64,000 nt of DNA, from NCBI GenBank assembly GCA_016875875.1, contig VGOP01000003.1, positions 98,687 to 162,686 on the forward strand, written 5' to 3'. Under the pieces are notes generated by a model. That model was not told the origin of the DNA. It searched no databases and saw only the letters and a list, made by a program, of their open reading frames with translations. Every line of letters begins with the position of its first letter. The stretch's first letter is position 1. Below, one piece after another: positions 1-53,570 of the stretch. The DNA is from Chloroflexota bacterium. GTDB taxonomy: Bacteria; Chloroflexota; Dehalococcoidia; GIF9; UBA5629. The position numbers and the translations under genes are program-made.

Positions 1-1
1 G

Positions 2-196
2 GCAAGGTATGATAGGCTGGCGACAAGACCGATTCGACCACTGACAAAGGAAGAGGCTGCCAGTCGGGATATTGCCGAGTTGGAGAATACCAATAAAGGT
101 GGGCCAATAGCCATGGCCGACTTCACTATCGTAAACGAGTCCTCCTTGGAAAATCTAAAAAGGGAAACTGAAAAGGTTATCTCTGTATTGCAATGA
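2..196 (+). CDS. 3' end of an upstream gene entering the window (C-terminal ~63 aa, ...DIAELENTNKGGPIAMADFTIVNESSLENLKRETEKVISVLQ*); stop overlaps the dCMP deaminase ATG (ATGA)
   Basis: Open frame from the window edge to TGA at 194-196; 4-nt overlap with the next start suggests translational coupling. The tail loosely resembles C-termini of P-loop nucleotide kinases, which is unverified. Confidence 0.3.
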   Translation, partial: ARYDRLATRPIRPLTKEEAASRDIAELENTNKGGPIAMADFTIVNESSLENLKRETEKVISVLQ

Positions 197-675
197 AGAA
201 AGTAACTAGGCCGGAAGTTGATGAATATTTTCTGAAGATAGCGTCAGTAGTGGCGGAACGCTCAACATGCCGTCGGCACCATGTTGGAGCCGTGGCGGTG
301 AAGGACAAACACATATTAGCCACTGGATACAATGGTGCTGCCGCTGGGCTTAAGGACTGCCTTAAGCTCGGCTGTCTCAGGGACGAGATGAACATACCGT
401 CTGGGACGAGGCACGAGATATGCCGTGGTATTCATGCTGAGCAGAATGTAATCATACAGGCATCGCTTCACGGAGTCAGCCTCGAGGACGCCACGGTCTA
501 TGTCACCCATACTCCGTGCATACTCTGTGCCAAGATGCTGGTGAATGCCAAGATAAAGCGATTTGTTACTTTCGGAAAATATGCGGATGATTCTTTCTTG
601 GAGCTATTCAACGAGGCCAGGGTAAAATTCGAGGTGCGGGAGAGGCCACCTGCCAAGATAACCTATTTGGATTAA
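193..675 (+). CDS. dCMP (deoxycytidylate) deaminase, cytidine/deoxycytidylate deaminase zinc-binding family
   Basis: HAEQNVI (H-A-E zinc/catalytic motif) and PCILCAKML (PCxxC zinc ligands) in a 160-aa protein. Confidence 0.85.
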   Translation: MKKVTRPEVDEYFLKIASVVAERSTCRRHHVGAVAVKDKHILATGYNGAAAGLKDCLKLGCLRDEMNIPSGTRHEICRGIHAEQNVIIQASLHGVSLEDATVYVTHTPCILCAKMLVNAKIKRFVTFGKYADDSFLELFNEARVKFEVRERPPAKITYLD

Positions 676-705
676 GTTGCTGGTCTTAAGGAATCAAGCA
701 CATAT

Positions 706-2721
706 TCAATTAAGGATGTTTTCTGGCGGCGATGTCTGGAGCTTCGATGTCTTTCCGTTGAGCAGATTGGGAGGGGAATAAACGCTCTCGAAATATCTGG
801 CGACATCATCTTTGCTGGCGAAATCCTTTATCAGTAAACCAACCCGTTGCTTCTCATTGTTGTGACCATTGTTTTCACTGGTAACAACTGCGGTCAGCCT
901 GATCTTATGGTTGCCTCTTGCTAATGCACCTTGCCTTTTCACGGCAGATCTTCCGTTCTTGTGTATTCCGTTAGAGATAATTAGCTTTACACGGTCGCCG
1001 AGCTGCAGTTTGGGACCCGTGTTTTCTAATCCTATCCCTGTAGTACTGAAGTCAACGGAGCGCGCTGGATACCAGGCTTTATCTCCGATGACCTGCCAAT
1101 AAGAATCGGTGCTGACGGGGAAGCGGTACGTTGCGCGGCGGCTGACGCTTCTCATACGGAATACACTTGCTGCTAACAGAGCTAAATTAAAAGATGCCCA
1201 GCCTATGGCGACCAGCATCGGAAACGGGTTCGGTTGGTACCAGATAGGATGTATTAGATGTGCGACACCGACAGCAATAGCAACAAGAGACACACCCATC
1301 ATAACCCAATGTGGTGTGAATAGTGGTTGAAATGGCGACCGGTTGCCGTCTCCTGCTACTTTGGAGGTTACCCGGAAGCGACTGGTGCGACCGGTTATAA
1401 GCGTTCGAAGCGCAGAGGTGAAGGCAAACATCTTAATAGCGTCATACCGTAATATATCCCATATATTGTATATACCTCGGCCAAGAAGCCACAGTGCGCT
1501 GAAGGTAAGAATCATATAGGGTGTAAAACGCACCCAAAACGACCAACTCAGGGTGTTGATGGGCAGCACTCCCGTCAATAAAACAAGGATAGGTATAGCC
1601 AGAAGAGTGAGCTTCTGCAGCGCATCGAAGTAGGTCTCCATTGAGGCAAAAAAACTAATCCGCTGACCTAAAGTGAGGCCGCGACCCCACAGTGGGTTGT
1701 CTTTTCGAAGGACTTGCATCGCTCCCTGCGCCCAGCGAAAACGCTGAGCCAGGAAGTCCTTGAGAGTTGCCGGTGCCAGCCCGGATGCCAACGGGCGGTC
1801 AATGTAGACCACGCGGTAGCCGCGCCTTGCCAGGCGAATAGAAGTATGCAGGTCTTCTGTTACAGTTTCTTCGGCTATACCGCCGATATTGTCGATTGCC
1901 GAGCGGCGTAACACCGATGGAGTACCACACCAGAAGGCTGAGTTGGTGCGGTTCTTTCCCGGCAGAATTACATGAAAGAATAGCTTCTGCTCATGCCAGT
2001 CGGGGCTATCATGCTCGAATGAATCGAGGTTGTAGAATAGCTGCGGTCCTTGAACAACAGCTACGGTTGTGTCCTCAAAGAAGCCGATTGTCTCATCAAG
2101 AAAACCAGGGAGTGGTATGTGATCAGCATCCAAAGTTGCGATCAACTCTCCGGTAGTTCGGCTAAGTGCGTAGTTCAAGTTACCTGCTTTTGCTCCCTCA
2201 TGCGTGGGACGTGCCATGTACTCGCAGTTGAAGGCGGCGGCAAGGGCACGAACCTCCTCACGTCCACCGTCATCCAGAATGTAAGTCCGGTGAGGATAAC
2301 GTATTTTGGCACATCCGGCCAGTGTGGCACGGAGAACATCTACAGGCTCATTGTATGTGGGGATGAGTACATCAACGATAGTGTTACGCTTTGCCTTCGG
2401 GGGCACAGGATACACCAGTCGCCAGGCCATGAAGGCATATAGAAGAAATACCATCAGGCCATAGGCTTCTGCTGCCCACAGCAACCAGGAAAGGAGCATC
2501 GCCTCGGGATTCAGCGTTGACAATCGCCATATCAAATAGTAAAGGGTAAAGGCTACAGCAATAACGGTAACGCACTGTATAATGGGCTCAGCAATGCGCT
2601 TTGGCTGTCTTGCCTTGGCGGACTCTGGGCTCGCTTTGTTTTTGGCAATTACAAGAGCCAGAGCCAGTACGTATAGGCTTGCATAAATGATTATTATTAC
2701 GTAAATAAGCCACTCAGCCAT
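706..2721 (-). CDS. Family-2 glycosyltransferase, processive beta-glycan (cellulose-synthase BcsA-like) synthase with C-terminal PilZ c-di-GMP-binding domain
   Basis: GT2 motifs: ...ILDDGG..., ...TLDADH..., QGPQ, FWCGTPSVLRR, QRFRWAQG (QxxRW). Multiple TM helices. PilZ motifs RRATYR (RxxxR) and DFSTTG (DxSxxG) after the TM region. Low-complexity C-terminal tail. Confidence 0.8.
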   Translation of the reverse strand: MAEWLIYVIIIIYASLYVLALALVIAKNKASPESAKARQPKRIAEPIIQCVTVIAVAFTLYYLIWRLSTLNPEAMLLSWLLWAAEAYGLMVFLLYAFMAWRLVYPVPPKAKRNTIVDVLIPTYNEPVDVLRATLAGCAKIRYPHRTYILDDGGREEVRALAAAFNCEYMARPTHEGAKAGNLNYALSRTTGELIATLDADHIPLPGFLDETIGFFEDTTVAVVQGPQLFYNLDSFEHDSPDWHEQKLFFHVILPGKNRTNSAFWCGTPSVLRRSAIDNIGGIAEETVTEDLHTSIRLARRGYRVVYIDRPLASGLAPATLKDFLAQRFRWAQGAMQVLRKDNPLWGRGLTLGQRISFFASMETYFDALQKLTLLAIPILVLLTGVLPINTLSWSFWVRFTPYMILTFSALWLLGRGIYNIWDILRYDAIKMFAFTSALRTLITGRTSRFRVTSKVAGDGNRSPFQPLFTPHWVMMGVSLVAIAVGVAHLIHPIWYQPNPFPMLVAIGWASFNLALLAASVFRMRSVSRRATYRFPVSTDSYWQVIGDKAWYPARSVDFSTTGIGLENTGPKLQLGDRVKLIISNGIHKNGRSAVKRQGALARGNHKIRLTAVVTSENNGHNNEKQRVGLLIKDFASKDDVARYFESVYSPPNLLNGKTSKLQTSPPENILN

Positions 2722-2981
2722 CTTACTTATCCGCTGCTATACTTAGTTAACATAAATGTACAGCAGTAGTACTCTGGCGTCTATAAACTTTATGGCTAAT
2801 ATGCCTGCATACTTTATGACTAGGACGACTTAGTACTTCTATACTAAGTAAGCATTTGGCAATGTTTGCCGGGCTCTTTGGAAGTTACCCCTGCTTAAGC
2901 ACGTTGAATTTTAGACAGTCGATTCTTGTTTGCTTTTATGCAGTGTTTAAAGACAGGGTAGAATATCGGTAAGGTCAGTAG

Positions 2982-3085
2982 CAGGGATGAGGCGAGAACG
3001 AGGCACGAGATTTGCCGTGACGTTAATGCCGGCGGAATGTAATCGTACAGGCATCATTCCTGTGGTGAGCCTGGAGGGTAGCTCG
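2982..3085 (+). pseudogene. Degraded ~105-nt direct copy of an internal segment of the dCMP deaminase gene (matching approx. 378..490), frameshifted and non-coding
   Basis: By-eye alignment: acgaggcacgagat[a/t]tgccgtg...aatgtaatc[a/g]tacaggcatc... roughly 75-80% identical over ~100 nt. Translation gives TRHEICRDVNAGGM* versus TRHEICRGIHAEQNVIIQAS in the intact gene. Confidence 0.6.
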
Positions 3086-3110
3086 TTTGTCCAGGAATTA
3101 AAACTGAACC

Positions 3111-4382
3111 TTATTTCTGACCAGAAATGTTCTCAGGTTTATTATCCTTCTTGAGTACGTAATTCCGGACGATTTCGAGAGCTGCCTCGACCATTTCCGG
3201 CTCGATATGCTTGGTCAGGTCATTTGGGGTATGGTACACTATGCCCTGGCTGAACTTGCTGATATCAAAGCTGATGCCAGCCATATTGGTAGCCTCCACG
3301 CCGATTTTGCCGAATGCGGCCGCATCCGTGCTCCCGGCACCAAAAGGCATGCCTGAGATTCTGGCAGGGTAACCTAACGATTCTGCAATGCTGACGCAAT
3401 CCTGCGCCATTTGATGTGACAGTTTTACCGACCCATTTAAGTCATTCTCTAAAAAGGAGAGGTCTTCGACTTTGTAAAGTGTATCAATATTCAAGACATA
3501 GGTCTTGGTGTGGAGCAGTTTTTCACCGTGTTTTTTGCAGAACGCTCGGGCGCCACGGAGGCCAGCTTCTTCAGCATCAAAAGAGGCTACTATCAGCCGG
3601 GTATGACGCAGCGGATTTCTCCCTGCTTGCTTGGCCTGATGAAAAAGCTTTGCCGTCTCATTGGCAATTGCTACGGCAATCATGTTATCGCCAGCACCGG
3701 GGGATACTTGTCCGGTGGTGAAGAATGCCAGTGGAAGCAGGAAAACCCCACCGACTAGCAATATCACGGGTATCCAGGGATGCGTCCAGCCAGGAATGGG
3801 AATGTGAAATATGGTCAAGATGGTTCCTACCAAAGCAACGAGGAAACCAAGCAACAAAAATAGTACCCCTGTATTGATAAGCTTAGCATAGTATTTGGGA
3901 CAACGGGCAATGAGCTGAAACACATATGCCGCATCGTGATGTGCGCTTACGATGACCTGTTGCCTTACCTTCCCTTCTGGTTCAATGGAGCCGAAGACGT
4001 TATATCCGGTGGCTTTAGGGAACAATGGGTCGAGCAGTTTCCAATAGCGTGCGAATTGGGCGTAAAACACAAAGATCCCCAATGTGTACCCGATAAACGC
4101 CGGCACAGGAAGCCGCAAGCATAATAGAATGGTGCAGATAAAATAAAGCACCACCAGCCCGGGGATATACTTCAAGAAACTCTTGGGGTGGACTGTGAAA
4201 TCTTCTATTTTTACTGAACTAGGGTCACAATTCTTGATAAATTCCTCTTTTATCCGATTTGCCGTATTTCGGCAGGCCTCCGTCCCTGCCAGGCGATTGG
4301 GATATCGCTCTACGACTTCGTCAGTGAAATCGAAGGCATGTTGCATATAGCTTTTATTTATCTCTAAGTCAGACTTACCCAT
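3111..4382 (-). CDS. Membrane-embedded M28-family zinc peptidase (aminopeptidase-like) with internal TM segments
   Basis: Peptidase M28-like blocks (SAHHDAAY, ASFDAEEAGLRGARAF, NIDT, GAGSTD, YHTPND) interrupted by hydrophobic helices. Start moved to ATG (MGKSDLE) preceded by GGAGG. The track ORF begins at an upstream alternative start. Confidence 0.6.
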   Translation of the reverse strand: MGKSDLEINKSYMQHAFDFTDEVVERYPNRLAGTEACRNTANRIKEEFIKNCDPSSVKIEDFTVHPKSFLKYIPGLVVLYFICTILLCLRLPVPAFIGYTLGIFVFYAQFARYWKLLDPLFPKATGYNVFGSIEPEGKVRQQVIVSAHHDAAYVFQLIARCPKYYAKLINTGVLFLLLGFLVALVGTILTIFHIPIPGWTHPWIPVILLVGGVFLLPLAFFTTGQVSPGAGDNMIAVAIANETAKLFHQAKQAGRNPLRHTRLIVASFDAEEAGLRGARAFCKKHGEKLLHTKTYVLNIDTLYKVEDLSFLENDLNGSVKLSHQMAQDCVSIAESLGYPARISGMPFGAGSTDAAAFGKIGVEATNMAGISFDISKFSQGIVYHTPNDLTKHIEPEMVEAALEIVRNYVLKKDNKPENISGQK

Positions 4383-4452
4383 ATCAAACCTCCGCGTCCA
4401 TGTTAAAACCCCACTGCCCACTTGTCAATGCCCCGAATTATCCCCAACCTCT

Positions 4453-4481
4453 TGCCAACTCTCAAGTCCAAACATTACAAT
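4453..4481 (+). promoter_or_regulatory. Sigma70-like promoter candidate for the acyl-CoA synthetase gene (TTGCCA, 17-nt spacer, TACAAT)
   Basis: -35 TTGCCA and -10 TACAAT with a 17-nt spacer about 30 nt upstream of the ATG at 4514; RBS AAAGGGAGGA precedes the ATG. Confidence 0.35.
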
Positions 4482-4513
4482 GTCTGCAAATTGCTGAAAG
4501 GGAGGAACAAAAA

Positions 4514-6178
4514 ATGGCCGATTATCCGTGGTATAAAAGCTACGACCCAGGAGTTCCGTATACTCTGGAACCTTATCCCCAGTATAACGCCATAGACCTG
4601 TTGGACAATGTGGTAAAGTTGCATCCTGACCATCCCATGCTTATTTACCAGCACAGCTGCCTGTCCTGGAAGACTGTTAATGAGTTAAGCGATAAAATGG
4701 CTGCGGCGCTGGTTGCCAGCGGCGTTAAAAAAGGCGACCGTGTGGCGGTGCTATATATCAACATCCCCCAGACTTTTATCACCTACTACGCCATCTGGAA
4801 GGCGGGTGCCATAATAGTGCCCTTGAATCCCCTTTACACCCCGGCCGAATTGGAAAATGCTCTCAATGATGTCGGGGCTGAGGTAGCCTTTGTGTTGAAT
4901 TTCTGGTACCCCATGCTGGATGGGCTGAAACCAAAAACCAAACTGCGATTGCTTATTGTCACCGAACTGGACGAATATACATTGGGAAAAGACATGGATG
5001 CTCCACATGCCATGGAGCTTAAAAGCGGTGACTTGTGGTTCAGTGACCTGATGAAGAAATATGCCAAGGCGGCTCGTCCGAAGGTAAAAGTAGGCCCGAA
5101 AGATCTGGCTTCTATCATGTTCAGTGGAGGAACCACTGGTGTGCCTAAGGGGGTGATGGGCAACCACATCTCCTATACCATGACGGGGATGCAGATAAGG
5201 GCATGGATGGAAGGTGTAGGCCCGGAATGGGAAACCGTGATGCTACTCACACTGCCGTTGTTCCATACCATGGGGGTCTATTTCTGCTTTGCCATGACAC
5301 CGGTAGCACATATGACCATGGTGCTGGTAGCTGACCCGCGGAATGTTGATGTCATCCTGCAAACTGTTCGTGAGGTCAAGCCCACCATGCTCACTGGTAC
5401 TCCGACGATGTTCATCAAGCTACTCGAGCACCCTGACCTCAAGCCAGACGAGCTGAAATGTGTAAAGAATATAGGGACCGGGGCAGCACCGCTGATGGCA
5501 GAAACAAAGAAGAAAATAGATGAACGGATTAGCGGTTTTATCACTGAAGGCTATGCGCTCAGTGAGTCCACGATGGCCATGACCACCACGCCAGCCCGTG
5601 GAGTCTGGAAAGAAGGCTCTGTGGGCTGCCCGCTGCCGGATACCCTTATCCGCATTGTTGATGTGGAGACGGGGACGAAAGAGATGAAGACGGGTGAAGC
5701 CGGTGAGGTGTTAATCAAGGCACCTCAAATCATGGTTGGCTACTGGAACCGTCCCCAGGATACCGCTGAAGCAATTCGCAATGGCTGGCTACATACCGGC
5801 GATGTCGGTTACCTGGACGAGGATGGCTATTTGTTTTTAACTTCTCGTACAAAGGACGTGATAAAGCCGGGCGGTTTCCAGGTCTGGCCTCGGGAAGTTG
5901 AGGAGGTACTCATGACTTATCCAGCAGTATCCGAAGTCTGTGTAGCTGGCATACCTGACCCCCGCCAGATGGAAGCAGTGAAAGCCTGGATTATTCTGAA
6001 GGAAGGGGCGCAGGCTACACCGGAGGAGCTGCAAAACTATTGCCGCGAGAAACTGGCGGCTTATAAAGTGCCCCGGTTTTTTGAGTTCCGCACTGAGCTT
6101 CCCAAGACAATGGTGGGCAAGGTACTGCGCCGCGCTCTACAGGAAGAAGAGAGAGCCAAACAAAAAGAAGTCAAATAG
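4514..6178 (+). CDS. AMP-dependent synthetase/ligase (long-chain or medium-chain acyl-CoA synthetase, FadD-like)
   Basis: AMP-binding signature MFSGGTTGVPKGV, GYALSE, ...GWLHTGDVGYLDEDGYLFLTSRTKDVIK, C-terminal KVPR...LPKTMVGKVLRR. Start set at MADYPWYKSYD with a strong SD. Confidence 0.85.
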   Translation: MADYPWYKSYDPGVPYTLEPYPQYNAIDLLDNVVKLHPDHPMLIYQHSCLSWKTVNELSDKMAAALVASGVKKGDRVAVLYINIPQTFITYYAIWKAGAIIVPLNPLYTPAELENALNDVGAEVAFVLNFWYPMLDGLKPKTKLRLLIVTELDEYTLGKDMDAPHAMELKSGDLWFSDLMKKYAKAARPKVKVGPKDLASIMFSGGTTGVPKGVMGNHISYTMTGMQIRAWMEGVGPEWETVMLLTLPLFHTMGVYFCFAMTPVAHMTMVLVADPRNVDVILQTVREVKPTMLTGTPTMFIKLLEHPDLKPDELKCVKNIGTGAAPLMAETKKKIDERISGFITEGYALSESTMAMTTTPARGVWKEGSVGCPLPDTLIRIVDVETGTKEMKTGEAGEVLIKAPQIMVGYWNRPQDTAEAIRNGWLHTGDVGYLDEDGYLFLTSRTKDVIKPGGFQVWPREVEEVLMTYPAVSEVCVAGIPDPRQMEAVKAWIILKEGAQATPEELQNYCREKLAAYKVPRFFEFRTELPKTMVGKVLRRALQEEERAKQKEVK

Positions 6179-6221
6179 AATCCCAAAAGGGGAAGACAGG
6201 CTTGCTACAAAAGTAAGCTAG

Positions 6222-7004
6222 TCACTGCTGGGCGATGACGAAATTTTTCAGCGTGCCGATGTTTTCTATTCTGACTTCAACCACATCGCCCGTATTCATT
6301 GGGCCGATACCTGATGGTGTGCCTGTGGCTATGATATCGCCAGGGAGCAGCGTCATTACACCGGAAATAAAGCTGATGAGCTTGGATGTTCCGAAGATAA
6401 GGTCGCTGGTATAAGCCGACTGGCGCAGTTCGCCGTTGAGGTACGTTTCGAGTTTCAGGTTGTCTGGACTGGCTTCTGTCTCTATCCATGGGCCTATGGG
6501 GGCGAAGGTGTCATAACCCTTAGCTCTTGTCCACTGACCATCTTCAGCCTGATTATGGCGCTCGCTGACATCATTGACACAAGTATAACCAAGTACGTAT
6601 TCCTTTGCCTCTTCTTCTGGAACATCCTTTGCCTTCTTGCTGATGACTACACCCAGCTCACCTTCGTAGTCAACGCGCTTCCAGCCGCGGGGCAGGACGA
6701 TTTTGTCGTCGGGGCCGATGGCAGCAGTGGATGGTTTGAGGAAGATGAGCGGCACTGAAGGCATGGGCAGTTTCATCTCCTCAACGTGGCTGCGATAATT
6801 GAGTCCCAGGCAGATTATCTTGGAGGGGAGACAGGGGGCGAGCAGCCTGACCTCATCCAGTTTGTAGGTACTACCGTCAAGTGTAGATGTGCTGCTAAAA
6901 TGCTTAAAATGAGAAAAGGGGCTGCCGCGGAGTCCGCTTATGGTATTTTGGGCTAGCAGACCATATTTGGCTCTACCCTTGGCAACAAAGCGAACGATTC
7001 GCAA
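6222..7004 (-). CDS. Fumarylacetoacetate hydrolase (FAH) family protein (2-keto-4-pentenoate hydratase / HpcE-like)
   Basis: MRIVRF...KIICLGLNYRSHVEEM...PLIFLKP...DYEGELGVVI...TGTPSGIG, typical FAH-fold motifs. Confidence 0.8.
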   Translation of the reverse strand: MRIVRFVAKGRAKYGLLAQNTISGLRGSPFSHFKHFSSTSTLDGSTYKLDEVRLLAPCLPSKIICLGLNYRSHVEEMKLPMPSVPLIFLKPSTAAIGPDDKIVLPRGWKRVDYEGELGVVISKKAKDVPEEEAKEYVLGYTCVNDVSERHNQAEDGQWTRAKGYDTFAPIGPWIETEASPDNLKLETYLNGELRQSAYTSDLIFGTSKLISFISGVMTLLPGDIIATGTPSGIGPMNTGDVVEVRIENIGTLKNFVIAQQ

Positions 7005-9117: not shown

Positions 9118-10654
9118 GAGTTCTCCCTTTAAGTGTAATCACGTGTATGGCACAAGCCAGGCAGGGATCGAAGGAGCGGATAATACGCCCGAGCTCAAAG
9201 GGATTCTTTTCATCCTTTATCTTGGTACCGATAAGGGCTTGCTCTACCGGCCCTGGCTGCCCATTGTCATCTTTAGGAGACATATTCCAAGTGCTTGGCA
9301 CGACGCACTGATAATTGGCAATTTTCTTATCTTTAATCTCGATCCAGTGTCCCAGAGCACCTCGGGCACCGTCAACCAGCCCCATTCCGAAGGCTTCGTC
9401 GGGTAAGGTGTAATCTATGTAAGCTGGTTCGCCGGGCTTGAGCTGGAGCAGCCACTCGGGCATAGAATCGGCCAGGAACTTGGTGTAGAGGGCACGGGCA
9501 GCATGGCGGCCGAGTACTGAGAATAGAGCATTGGGGCTGGCGTTAAACTTGGAGAGCACGGAATCAACCAGTTGCTTTACCGTTGGCTCGCCGCTGGCAT
9601 AGGTAGCTGCTATACGGGCCAGCGGACCAACTTCATAGACTTTGCCATCGTACCGAGGAGCTTTCACCCATGAGTAGGCATCTTTCTTGCCCATCTGAGG
9701 CTCGGTCATACCTTTGGACGGATGCTTGCCGGTGCTCGACTCGGCATACCAGGAGTGTTTCACATACTCCATAATCTTGTTCGTGTCGATGGCACCAAGC
9801 TTGAGGTCGGTTGAAATCGTTCCCTGCTTCATAAACCTCTTCCTCTTGGTGTAGTCAGGATTATTGCCTTCGAGGTCGAAACTTCCGTAAGAAAGCAGAT
9901 TGCCGCAACCGGCGCCGATTTCGAAATAGTCAGGATAGGCTTCAGCTACTGCCAGGACATCAGGAATATAGACATTGTTGACGAAGTCCCTTAGCTCATT
10001 CAGCATCCACAGGAAAGAGGCTATTTTGTCTACGGTAACCGTCGCAGTGACTCCGCCCGGGATGACTGCCATATTGTGGGGCATTTTGCCGCCGAAAATA
10101 ACCAGCATTTCCTGCCCCTTGCGCCTCATCTCCAGAGCCTTGACATAATGAGCCAGGGCGCCTATGTTCATCTGGTCGCTGAGCCGGTAATCGCCTTCGT
10201 AGCGAGGCACAAATGGGGCCAGCTCTCCTCGCTTGGCAAATTCTTTGACTGAATTCAAATCTGGGTCGTTGCCATCGTACTTGAGCGCCTTGGTGACGTC
10301 CACGTAATCCAGAGCTGCCAGATGATAGAAGTGCAGTATGTGGTCGGAGACGTGGGCTGCTCCCAGTATGAGATTGCGGATAATCCGGCCGTTATCGGGT
10401 ATCTTATCGGCAAGACCAAAAGCGCTATCCAAATTCAGAGTGGCGGCTATAGAATGGCTTGTGGGACAGACGCCACAGATACGCTGAGTATACATTTGGG
10501 CATCACGGGGGTCTCTACCACGGAGGATGATTTCGAGGCCTCGGAACATCATGCCTGAACTGTGAGCCTCTTTTACCACACCATTCTCGGTGACAACTTC
10601 AACCTTAAAATGTCCTTCAATACGAGTGACAGGGTCAACTACAATCTTGCTCAA
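9095..10654 (-). CDS. [NiFe]-hydrogenase large subunit
   Basis: N-terminal VTRIEGH...RICGVCPTSHS (L1) and C-terminal DPCLACAIH followed by a short cleavable tail (VITLKGRTLGIHKVR). TTG start preceded by AAGGAG. Confidence 0.9.
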   Translation of the reverse strand: MSKIVVDPVTRIEGHFKVEVVTENGVVKEAHSSGMMFRGLEIILRGRDPRDAQMYTQRICGVCPTSHSIAATLNLDSAFGLADKIPDNGRIIRNLILGAAHVSDHILHFYHLAALDYVDVTKALKYDGNDPDLNSVKEFAKRGELAPFVPRYEGDYRLSDQMNIGALAHYVKALEMRRKGQEMLVIFGGKMPHNMAVIPGGVTATVTVDKIASFLWMLNELRDFVNNVYIPDVLAVAEAYPDYFEIGAGCGNLLSYGSFDLEGNNPDYTKRKRFMKQGTISTDLKLGAIDTNKIMEYVKHSWYAESSTGKHPSKGMTEPQMGKKDAYSWVKAPRYDGKVYEVGPLARIAATYASGEPTVKQLVDSVLSKFNASPNALFSVLGRHAARALYTKFLADSMPEWLLQLKPGEPAYIDYTLPDEAFGMGLVDGARGALGHWIEIKDKKIANYQCVVPSTWNMSPKDDNGQPGPVEQALIGTKIKDEKNPFELGRIIRSFDPCLACAIHVITLKGRTLGIHKVR

Positions 10655-13281: not shown

Positions 13282-13326
13282 GTTTTTCTCCTTACAAAGG
13301 AGAGGGGGATTAAGGGGGTGAGGTTG

Positions 13327-14412
13327 CTAAACAATTTCATATTGATAATAAGCGGCACAGGCACCTTCTGAAGATACCATGCATGGCCCTACAGGTTGCT
13401 CTGGAAAACAGGCCTTGCGGAATAGCTTGCACTCATTAGGAGTCTTTACACCGCGAAGGATATCGCCGCAGATGCAGCCCTTCGCTTCTCGGACCGGCTC
13501 CAGGGTTACTGAAAAGGCTAGCTCGGCGTCGAAACGTCCGTATTCCTTTCTCAGTTTCAGGCCGCTGGCTGGAACAACGCCTATACCTCTCCAATCGGCG
13601 CCACTGACTTCAAAAACGCTGTCCATTAGCTTTAAGGCTGTTATGTTACCTTCAGGCTTAACGCCACGGCGGTAGGCTATCTCCACCCGCGGCTTGCCGC
13701 TTTCGATTTGCTCCACCAGCATGGCTACGGACTGCAGAATATCCAGCGGCTCGAAGCCTGAGACTACGCAGGCAACGCCGTAGTCGCGGGGGATGAATTC
13801 GTAGTGACGAGAGCCAATTATGGCACTGACATGCCCAGGGCAAACGATGCCGTCCAGCTTGAGCTCACCCAAATCAAGGATAGCTTTCATTATTGGTGGG
13901 CATAGCTTCAGCAGGCAGAGGACGTAAAAGTTTCTGATTCCTTCATTTTCAGCCTGAAAAATGGAGGCGGCGATGGTTGGGCTGGTGGTCTCAAAGCCGA
14001 TGCCGATGAAGATAACCGACCGTGTTGGGTTGTCCCTGGCAATTTGCAGAGCATCTTGGGTGGAGTAGACAATGCGGATATCAGCCTCTTCTGCTCTGAC
14101 TTTCTGCAGGCTGGAATAGCTGCCGGGGACTTTCATCATATCGCCGAAGGTGGTGATAATGACATCGGGCAAGCGGGCCAGGGCAATAGCTTTATCTATA
14201 TCGGCGTTGGCGGTAACACACACCGGGCAGCCCGGGCCAGAGAGCATCTCTACAGTTGGGGGAAGAAGCTGGCGGATACCGTTTCTCATGATGGCTACGG
14301 TGTGCCCGCCGCAGAACTCCATCAGCCTGGCTGGCCTTTTCGACAGTTGCTCTATTCTGGCTACCAGCTTTTTGCCCAGCTCAACATCCCGGTATTCATC
14401 AATAAATTTCAC
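13327..14412 (-). CDS. hypD: Hydrogenase maturation factor HypD
   Basis: MKFIDEYRD..., GPGCPVC and CPVC... Fe-S/CxxC motifs; GTG start sharing a base with the upstream stop (TAGTG). Confidence 0.9.
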   Translation of the reverse strand: MKFIDEYRDVELGKKLVARIEQLSKRPARLMEFCGGHTVAIMRNGIRQLLPPTVEMLSGPGCPVCVTANADIDKAIALARLPDVIITTFGDMMKVPGSYSSLQKVRAEEADIRIVYSTQDALQIARDNPTRSVIFIGIGFETTSPTIAASIFQAENEGIRNFYVLCLLKLCPPIMKAILDLGELKLDGIVCPGHVSAIIGSRHYEFIPRDYGVACVVSGFEPLDILQSVAMLVEQIESGKPRVEIAYRRGVKPEGNITALKLMDSVFEVSGADWRGIGVVPASGLKLRKEYGRFDAELAFSVTLEPVREAKGCICGDILRGVKTPNECKLFRKACFPEQPVGPCMVSSEGACAAYYQYEIV

Positions 14413-27941: not shown

Positions 27942-28570
27942 TGTCTATCCTCCTTATCACTTTTTTATAACTAGCTGTAATGCTTTCCGATACGAAGCTG
28001 ACACAGTTTGCTCCAATTTATGCCGAAGTGGAGGCGACTTATTAATGGCTAGCAGTTGTCCGTTGTGCCAGTGACAGCTAGATATTCTGTCATAGCCAAG
28101 ACAAAGAAGTGAACCTTGTAGAGTTGAAAGAGAGTCAGGGGCGAAAGCGTAAAAATATGAACGATTTCTGATCCAAAAATAAAACGCCACCGTTACCAGG
28201 GCGCTTTTAATATCAACGTAACTTAGTTTCAATTCGGCTCTCCTTTCCAAACATGGGAGGCGTCACCGTTTCCAGTGGCACCCTATCGGCCGATGCCCTT
28301 GGCTATTCCTTTAGGACAAAAGGCTCGGAAAGCTATTATTAAACTGGCGGCATTATAACATGAAATTTTTCAGCTTACAATTTCCCTTTTTAACTCCATA
28401 ACTGCAGGAGAGGGAGAGGCGATTTTCCCCTCCTGGATTTGAGAGACTAAGTGATGGTGCATTTTTTATAGAAATTCCAAAGTAAATACAGTGCGTCAAT
28501 CTCCATGCGATGATTGCCAAGCATTAAAGTTAGTGCTAATATTGTCGACAATATTCTTAATAGGATATTA

Positions 28571-53493: not shown

Positions 53494-53570
53494 CGGGGCG
53501 TAGCGCAGTCTGGTAGCGCGCAGCGTTCGGGACGCTGAGGTCGGAGGTTCGAACCCTCTCGCCCCGACCA
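53494..53570 (+). tRNA. tRNA-Pro (anticodon CGG)
   Basis: Acceptor stem CGGGGCG/CGCCCCG, D-arm TAGCGCAGTCTGGTAGCGC, anticodon loop TTCGGGA (CGG), T-arm GGTTCGAACCC, discriminator A and encoded CCA; 77 nt. Confidence 0.9.

Follow-up and report, generated by a model that had tools for sequence, protein, structure and literature searches.

The stretch analyzed here (the window) comprises 64,000 nucleotides (nt) of contig VGOP01000003.1 (positions 98,687 to 162,686 of the forward strand, assembly GCA_016875875.1) of a Chloroflexota bacterium belonging to the Dehalococcoidia. The end of an AAA-type kinase-like gene, an intact dCMP deaminase gene, a gene encoding a glycosyltransferase of family 2 with a PilZ domain (GT2-PilZ, hereafter GT2), and the genes for an M28 family peptidase, an AMP-dependent ligase and an FAA-hydrolase family protein follow one another at its start (Table 1). 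The spacer separating GT2 from M28 measures 389 nt in total, and hosts an 88-nt segment which repeats, in the same orientation, the interior of the deaminase gene. This segment is probably (probability about 0.8) the displaced, decaying 3' portion of a deaminase gene which once resided beside a small tRNA_edit gene and the M28 gene, convergent with both.

The repeated residues, 400-488 in the intact deaminase gene and 2992-3079 in the spacer, are ~80% identical, the former covering the codons for GTRHEICRGIHAEQNVIIQASLHGVSLE. Local alignment of 340-520 to 2940-3110 yielded a score of 75, vs 16.0 ± 2.2 (maximum 27) in 500 shuffles, a difference of ~27 standard deviations. Blastn alignment of the deaminase to the spacer copy measured 79.3% identity across 82 nt, a profile made from 93 deaminase genes matched the spacer with an nhmmer E value of 6e-15 (profile positions 210-303), and a repeat search of the window recovered both halves of the repeat as two blocks. 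An earlier note, made from the letters of the window alone, had described a deaminase-derived direct repeat around GT2, and these data support it. The core of the repeat stood as described, but its outer edges did not. Inclusion of residues 2982-2991 requires a 12-nt gap and is ambiguous, nhmmer supports neither this interval nor its counterpart 378-399, and residues 3080-3085 have their homologues not in the deaminase but in the sequence located past M28 in relatives.

The downstream copy is a non-coding pseudogene relic, frameshifted as the note had read it. Pairwise alignment revealed two 1-nt deletions, no start codon and truncation at both ends, and the codons for the catalytic His-Ala-Glu (HAE) residues, CAT GCT GAG in the intact gene, are changed to AAT GCC G-G. 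Relatives' loci used for comparison are denoted by L-numbers, and their gene arrangements are given in window orientation. Three assemblies of this strain, produced independently of one another (L081-L083: Joint Genome Institute Ga0194113 and two Logan runs), contain an identical spacer. As these assemblies and the diverged lineage L102 all carry it, the relic is not an assembly artefact. An open reading frame (ORF) of 55 amino acids (aa) spanning 2987-3154 was not accepted as a real gene, since it extends, in antisense, into the 3' end of M28 and uses a frame relying on the window-specific 1-nt deletions, which L102 is devoid of.

Table 1. Features at the start of the window, and related features in loci of relatives
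Feature	Locus	Position	Strand	Remarks
AAA-type kinase-like gene	window	window start		end of gene only; upstream of dCMP deaminase
dCMP deaminase, ComEB-like, intact	window	193..675	+	PF00383, 88.7 bits; HAEQN and PCILC motifs in translation
Repeated segment of intact deaminase	window	400..488	+	nhmmer profile positions 208/210-296
Spacer, deaminase stop to GT2 stop	window	676..705		30 nt
GT2-PilZ glycosyltransferase	window	706..2721	-	BcsA-like, processive, 671 aa; Pfam GT2 families and PilZ
Portable GT2 cassette (gene and ~200 nt upstream)	window	688..2925	-	homology limits vs L111, L112, L113
Spacer part between GT2 cassette and relic 1	window	2926..2991		65 nt; TTAAAGACAGGGTAGAATAT
Relic 1, decayed deaminase copy	window	2992..3079	+	truncated 5' and 3'; deaminase positions ~208-296
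Deletion junction	window	3077..3079		GGG microhomology; GGAGGGTAGCTCGTTTG
Remnant of YbaK-like tRNA_edit gene, 5' end	window	3080..3110	-	31 nt; past M28 stop
M28 family peptidase	window	3111..4382	-	PF04389
AMP-dependent ligase	window	4400..6178	+	M28-side block; PF00501 and PF13193
FAA-hydrolase family gene	window	6222..7004	-	start of conserved right flank; PF01557
GT2 cassette elsewhere	L111	6799-9008
GT2 cassette elsewhere	L112	3317-5532
GT2 cassette elsewhere	L113	3960-6175
Relic 2	L003	9973-10030		nhmmer E 9e-11 (deaminase positions ~344-420)
Relic 2	L001	3157-3230		nhmmer E 1e-6 (~344-420)
Relic 2	L085			nhmmer E 2e-6 (~344-420)
Relic 2	L002			nhmmer E 6e-5 (~344-420)
Relic 2	L084	8020-8130	- (of locus)	nhmmer E 1.5e-4 (~344-420)
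Relic 2	L102	11673-11740

Deaminase homologues 76-92% identical at the aa level reside in >90 Dehalococcoidia loci, from metagenome-assembled genomes, and the gene forms a conserved anchor to the left of a region of variable content. In the nearest relatives nucleotide homology extends over the kinase and the deaminase (window 5-677) and resumes at ~6220, at the FAA-hydrolase gene, as seen in L001, L002, L004, L005 and L009; the content in between is variable. Six arrangements were distinguished. In arrangement (a), found in L103, L104/L105 and L106, the kinase is followed by deaminase(+), tRNA_edit(-) and M28(-), and GT2 is missing; L104 continues with the ligase(+), a biotin-carboxylase-like ATP-grasp gene(+), FAA hydrolase(-) and MTHFR(-). 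Arrangement (b) is that of the window: deaminase, GT2(-), relic, M28(-), ligase(+), FAA hydrolase(-). L102 (arrangement c) is like the window, plus the ATP-grasp gene between deaminase and GT2. In L084 and L091 (arrangement d) deaminase, ATP-grasp gene and GT2(-) are followed by a thymidylate-synthase-like gene(-) and FAA hydrolase, the latter preceded in L084 by a CDP-alcohol phosphatidyltransferase gene(-). L001, L002 and L004 (arrangement e) are organized in the same way, minus GT2. L114 (arrangement f) features deaminase, GT2, thymidylate-synthase-like gene, DUF2339 gene and FAA hydrolase. M28 orthologues, 80-90% identical, adjoin tRNA_edit and deaminase in L103-L106, and M28 is neighboured by the ligase in L099-L102 and L104. 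Relatives in which the deaminase lies next to M28 without GT2, separated from it by the small tRNA_edit gene only, thus exist, as the note had envisaged.

The comparison with L103 defines the right edge of the relic. Residues 3300-3076 of the window (minus strand) align with L103 9083-9307 at 91% identity, an interval which includes the 3' end of M28 and 35 nt past its stop (9272), and enters the overlapping tRNA_edit gene (starting at 9241; PF04073). Residues 3078-2993 align with L103 9928-10015, inside the L103 deaminase, the two alignments overlapping by 3 nt. At the joint the L103 deaminase reads CTCGAGGG/CGCC, L103 tRNA_edit reads AGCGGG/TAGCTCG, and the window reads CTGGAGGG/TAGCTCGTTTG, its right side beginning with TAGCTCG; ~620 nt present in L103 are absent from the window. 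The window therefore corresponds to arrangement (a) after one clean deletion of ~620 nt at the GGG microhomology, in which the 3' end of the deaminase, the spacer and the greater part of tRNA_edit were lost. What bounds the relic on the right is thus a secondary deletion, and not an insertion boundary. It follows from this collinearity that the relic formerly belonged to a deaminase copy set in its native tRNA_edit/M28 context. The sequence corresponding to residues 3080-3110 belongs, in L099-L101 and L103, to an intact tRNA_edit gene which overlaps the 3' end of M28. In some M28-type genomes tRNA_edit looks degraded: it is split into ORFs of 62 and 75 aa in L104 (9241-9695), and L106 has a 1.1-kb gap with no called gene (9285-10366).

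An orthologous relic is found in the same place in L102 (score 69-75 vs 19±2 in shuffles; nhmmer E 7e-20), next to the same GGG/TAGCTC junction. Window and L102 are 90% identical in M28, 85% in GT2 and ~82% in the spacer. The two relics share bases which differ from those of every deaminase compared (GATTTG, ATCGTACAGG). The two 1-nt deletions are missing in L102, and are therefore specific to the lineage of the window. As the relic, 82% identical, is common to both, the event is ancient. L102 is the sole related lineage arranged as the window around GT2 and M28, and it carries the fragment. In L084, L001, L002, L091 and L114 the spacer at the stop of the thymidylate-synthase-like gene is collinear with the relic over its initial 20-45 nt (for example GGGATTTGTCGTGGCAT vs deaminase GAGATATGTCGTGGCAT). 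A collinear multiple alignment and weak nhmmer matches suggest that these may be leftovers of the same relic; if so, a thymidylate-synthase block later overwrote most of it, plus M28 and the ligase. The interval between the thymidylate-synthase-like gene and FAA hydrolase in L001 (4208-4720) is repetitive and partly N-masked; all three minus-strand frames are open there, and read similar peptide repeats.

GT2 is found at another place in other relatives. In L111, L112 and L113 it is inserted between Fur-FeoA-FeoB and RidA/FolC, 83-84% identical at the aa level, and homology of these loci to the window is confined to the interval from 688/714 to 2904/2925. In L001, which is without GT2, homology to the window spacer begins at ~2935. 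GT2 and ~200 nt upstream form a discrete, portable single-gene unit ending at ~2925: the same limits emerge from two independent comparisons, and the locus is a different one in L111-L113. L007 was left out when the region upstream of GT2 was analyzed, as the gene is interrupted by a gap of 100 N. In this upstream region, at 2829-2850, a perfect palindrome, ACTTAGTA-N6-TACTAAGT, may be an operator or a hairpin; among the fetched loci it is exact only in L084 and in contigs of the same strain. Base composition carries no sign of recent transfer: the GC content of GT2 is 0.503, vs a mean of 0.493±0.026 for window genes, GC at third codon positions is 0.519, and the codon-usage distance (0.70) is mid-range for window genes >400 aa. 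The composition check proposed in the note thus speaks against a recent event, and is in line with an old one, as is the presence of the relic in L102; normal values fit either an old event or a donor of the same clade.

The GT2 product resembles BcsA, as proposed, in having the GT2 core (D, D, D, QxxRW, TED), with DAD198, TED288 and QRFRW326, and a C-terminal PilZ domain (PF07238, 24.5 bits vs a cut-off of 22.5) in which both motifs are intact (RSVSR524 for RxxxR, DFSTTG557 for DxSxxG). It differs from BcsA in scoring under the equivalog cut-off of TIGR03030 CelA (401.6 vs 699.1 bits, over residues 49-613) and in having no BcsB, BcsC or BcsZ partner in the contexts seen. The missing BcsB-like neighbour, remarked upon in the note for the window, holds for all the genomic contexts seen in the window and in the relatives' loci, where GT2 is flanked by deaminase, M28, the ATP-grasp gene, the thymidylate-synthase-like gene, Fur/Feo or FolC.

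A second relic of the deaminase, spanning overall positions ~344-480 of the gene, is found in relatives immediately past the stop codon of the ATP-grasp gene (Table 1). In L102 this relic 2 starts with ATTGCAGGCC and continues with a match to the last 33 nt of the deaminase, followed by TAA and GTTGCTGGTCTTAAGGAATCAAG; the match and what follows it correspond to residues 643-717 of the window (score 105). Because the spacer is so short, an internal loss of ~100 nt between two deaminase GCCAAGATAA motifs is suggested. Residues 643-675 and 676-705 of the window hence survive in L102 as the end of relic 2, and the same junction was found in L007 and L114. The ATP-grasp gene, too, is hence bracketed by an intact deaminase and by a 5'-truncated old copy, still joined to the old spacer and GT2 stop. 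The window, which is without the ATP-grasp gene, may either predate this second event or have had the gene cleanly excised when the repeats recombined. The last ~30 nt of the ATP-grasp gene (CGGCGGTTGGACAATCGGTAA) remain between deaminase and GT2 in L086 (~2050-2160, reverse strand), and point to a separate, imprecise loss. Given relic 2, the same process acted twice with the same deaminase anchor, and the two relics suggest that new cassettes have entered behind the deaminase more than once, through recombination of either the Campbell type or the homology-facilitated illegitimate type.

The events at the locus may be ordered as follows. DNA containing the 3' part of a deaminase gene, the GT2-PilZ cassette and a short spacer would have recombined into the resident deaminase gene, either through one crossover with a circular molecule (Campbell-type insertion-duplication), or by homology-facilitated illegitimate recombination anchored in kinase and deaminase. 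An intact deaminase would have been rebuilt on the left, and the old copy, from position ~208 onward, displaced beyond GT2. The ~620-nt deletion at the GGG microhomology would then have cut the 3' end of the old copy and most of tRNA_edit, and the remaining 88 nt would have drifted since. The view of the note, that GT2 was inserted into, or recombined within, the deaminase locus, is supported by the empty-site relatives, by the collinearity restored by one deletion and by the portability of GT2. The data establish the homology, the empty site in relatives, the exact joint of the deletion, the mobility of the GT2 cassette and the relic's age; the recombination mechanism, and GT2 as the incoming side, are what we infer. 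Which side was the incoming DNA is not provable; a left-hand anchor is favoured because two relics of the same gene are found.

Several points weigh against the displacement of a resident deaminase by incoming DNA. A donor must be assumed in which the deaminase was already beside GT2, and the origin of this adjacency is unexplained. Neither a donor nor a partner for the left junction (~2992) was found, and the GGG microhomology pertains to the secondary deletion joint. The origin of the 65-nt spacer 2926-2991, which is common to L102, L084 and L001, weaker in L002 and L091, and absent in L111-L113, is not accounted for. The relic is 77-80% identical to the deaminases of M28-adjacent genomes, 79% to that of the window and up to 82% to others, and such identities do not single out a source lineage. 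The remains in the thymidylate-synthase-type spacers, finally, are not significant when compared to the deaminase alone.

The same chimera may have arisen in the reverse direction, though this is unlikely. A chromosome with the order deaminase-GT2-spacer would have received an M28-type fragment, extending from inside a donor deaminase (~208) through tRNA_edit, M28 and ligase, with FAA hydrolase and MTHFR as the right anchor, so that the M28-ligase block would be the newcomer. The final structure would be identical to that produced by the arrival of GT2. The block on the right of GT2 is moreover exchangeable, consisting of M28-ligase in the window and L102, and of the thymidylate-synthase-like gene, with or without the CDP-alcohol phosphatidyltransferase gene, in L084, L091 and L114, and synteny in L084 and L001 suggests M28-ligase as the newcomer. 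The M28-type loci L103-L106, however, speak against this block as the sole newcomer, and GT2 is independently found to be portable. In addition, it would be fortuitous for the left end to fall within the deaminase, and relic 2 would require this twice, whereas a left-hand anchor expects the deaminase both times.

An origin within the genome, from a tandem or segmental duplication with its junction in the deaminase, followed by deletions and by insertion of GT2 between the copies, would dispense with foreign DNA. Direct repeats in the same orientation are what the junction of a tandem duplication leaves, and the composition of GT2 looks native. This history is nevertheless very improbable: it takes more steps (the duplication, at least two deletions, and an insertion of GT2 exactly between the copies), and no relative features an intermediate in which tRNA_edit, M28 or any other gene is present in two copies.

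The displaced deaminase piece might by now have acquired a role, as part of the M28 3' untranslated region or of the GT2 leader on the minus strand, working as antisense RNA, terminator or promoter element. Its position would allow it, since the M28 stop precedes it by 32 nt on that strand and the GT2 start follows at 271-358 nt, and a minus-strand transcript would be complementary to the mRNA of the deaminase, matching it perfectly over stretches of 14, 10 and 10 nt. The relic is 82% (72/88) identical in window and L102, whereas four-fold degenerate sites in the flanking genes reach 59-78%, and one block of 29 nt within it attains 93%. The same 82% applies to the remainder of the spacer, however, so that the relic does not stand out, and its conservation above four-fold sites is a weak, non-specific hint at most. 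Indels differ between lineages, and most of the relic appears to have been discarded in the thymidylate-synthase-type ones. Rfam searches of residues 2650-3200 on both strands gave no match at the gathering threshold or at E ≤ 1, scans for promoters and terminators detected none in the relic, their total of sites not exceeding that of shuffles, and the fold z-score of the spacer is only -2.5. We found no evidence of a present function of the relic, and consider one hardly probable. A slim chance is likewise left to its co-option as an 88-nt antisense segment, in the tail of the M28 mRNA or the leader of GT2, pairing across the zinc-site codons of the deaminase; this would couple expression of an envelope glycan synthase or of a peptidase to the dUMP/dTTP supply. 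Chance similarity or a chimeric assembly, for which only the short length of 88 nt could be invoked, is practically excluded by the margin over shuffles, the nhmmer match, the three identical assemblies and the L102 orthologue.

Mobile elements were considered and rejected. Insertion of a transposon or insertion sequence with target-site duplication does not fit an 88-nt repeat at 80% identity; the repeat search revealed no inverted repeats flanking 706-2721, and Pfam no transposase domain in 1-7004. Integrase-mediated islands resemble the locus in that gene-derived direct repeats flank inserted DNA. Here, however, Pfam detected no integrase or recombinase domain in the same 1-7004 interval, the repeat derives from the interior of a protein gene and is not a short exact att site, and no tRNA or tmRNA 3' end is found at it, the sole tRNA of the window residing at 53494-53567.

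The scar is of a known kind, real but ordinary, and marks neither a new mechanism nor a new functional element. In transformable bacteria, Campbell-type insertion-duplication yields an intact gene, the inserted DNA and a 5'-truncated second copy, all in the same orientation. The window shows the same order, but neither a circular intermediate nor a vector or donor is known for it, and the second copy is 3'-cut by ~620 nt and 20% diverged. Displacement at an anchor, leaving orphaned 3' regions, has been proposed for the effector-immunity arrays of type VI secretion systems (T6SS) and for Rhs loci (PMC5361080). In Rhs, contact-dependent inhibition (CDI) and T6SS arrays, cassettes are placed behind a conserved upstream anchor by homology-facilitated illegitimate recombination, and the remnants are ordered by age (PMC5361080 and references therein). 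The deaminase locus, with its two relics, is similar in having a conserved upstream gene as anchor and older 3' pieces displaced. It differs in that the anchor is a housekeeping gene of nucleotide metabolism, the cargo consists of unrelated metabolic or envelope genes and not of toxin-immunity modules, no more than two layers are found, and the hosts are uncultured Dehalococcoidia.

Two features of the window lie away from this locus. A molybdenum cofactor riboswitch (RF01055, 70.7 bits) is found at 28224-28342 on the minus strand. A 50-nt sequence at 13287-13336 (CTCCTTACAAAGGAGAGGGGGATTAAGGGGGTGAGGTTGCTAAACAA) has ~90% identical copies in unrelated places of L050 (twice) and L067, and looks like a short dispersed repeat of the clade.

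The interval between deaminase and FAA hydrolase is a hotspot of cassette exchange in freshwater and sediment Dehalococcoidia, where no fewer than five different contents are seen. Thanks to the scar, the gain of a gene can be dated and oriented in a lineage for which metagenomes are the only source. The glycan synthase, solitary and PilZ-bearing, moves as a unit of one gene and the region upstream of it. The two relics suggest that a housekeeping gene can be a repeated recombination anchor, without toxins or integrases, and make the locus a useful case for studies on the genome plasticity of streamlined bacteria.

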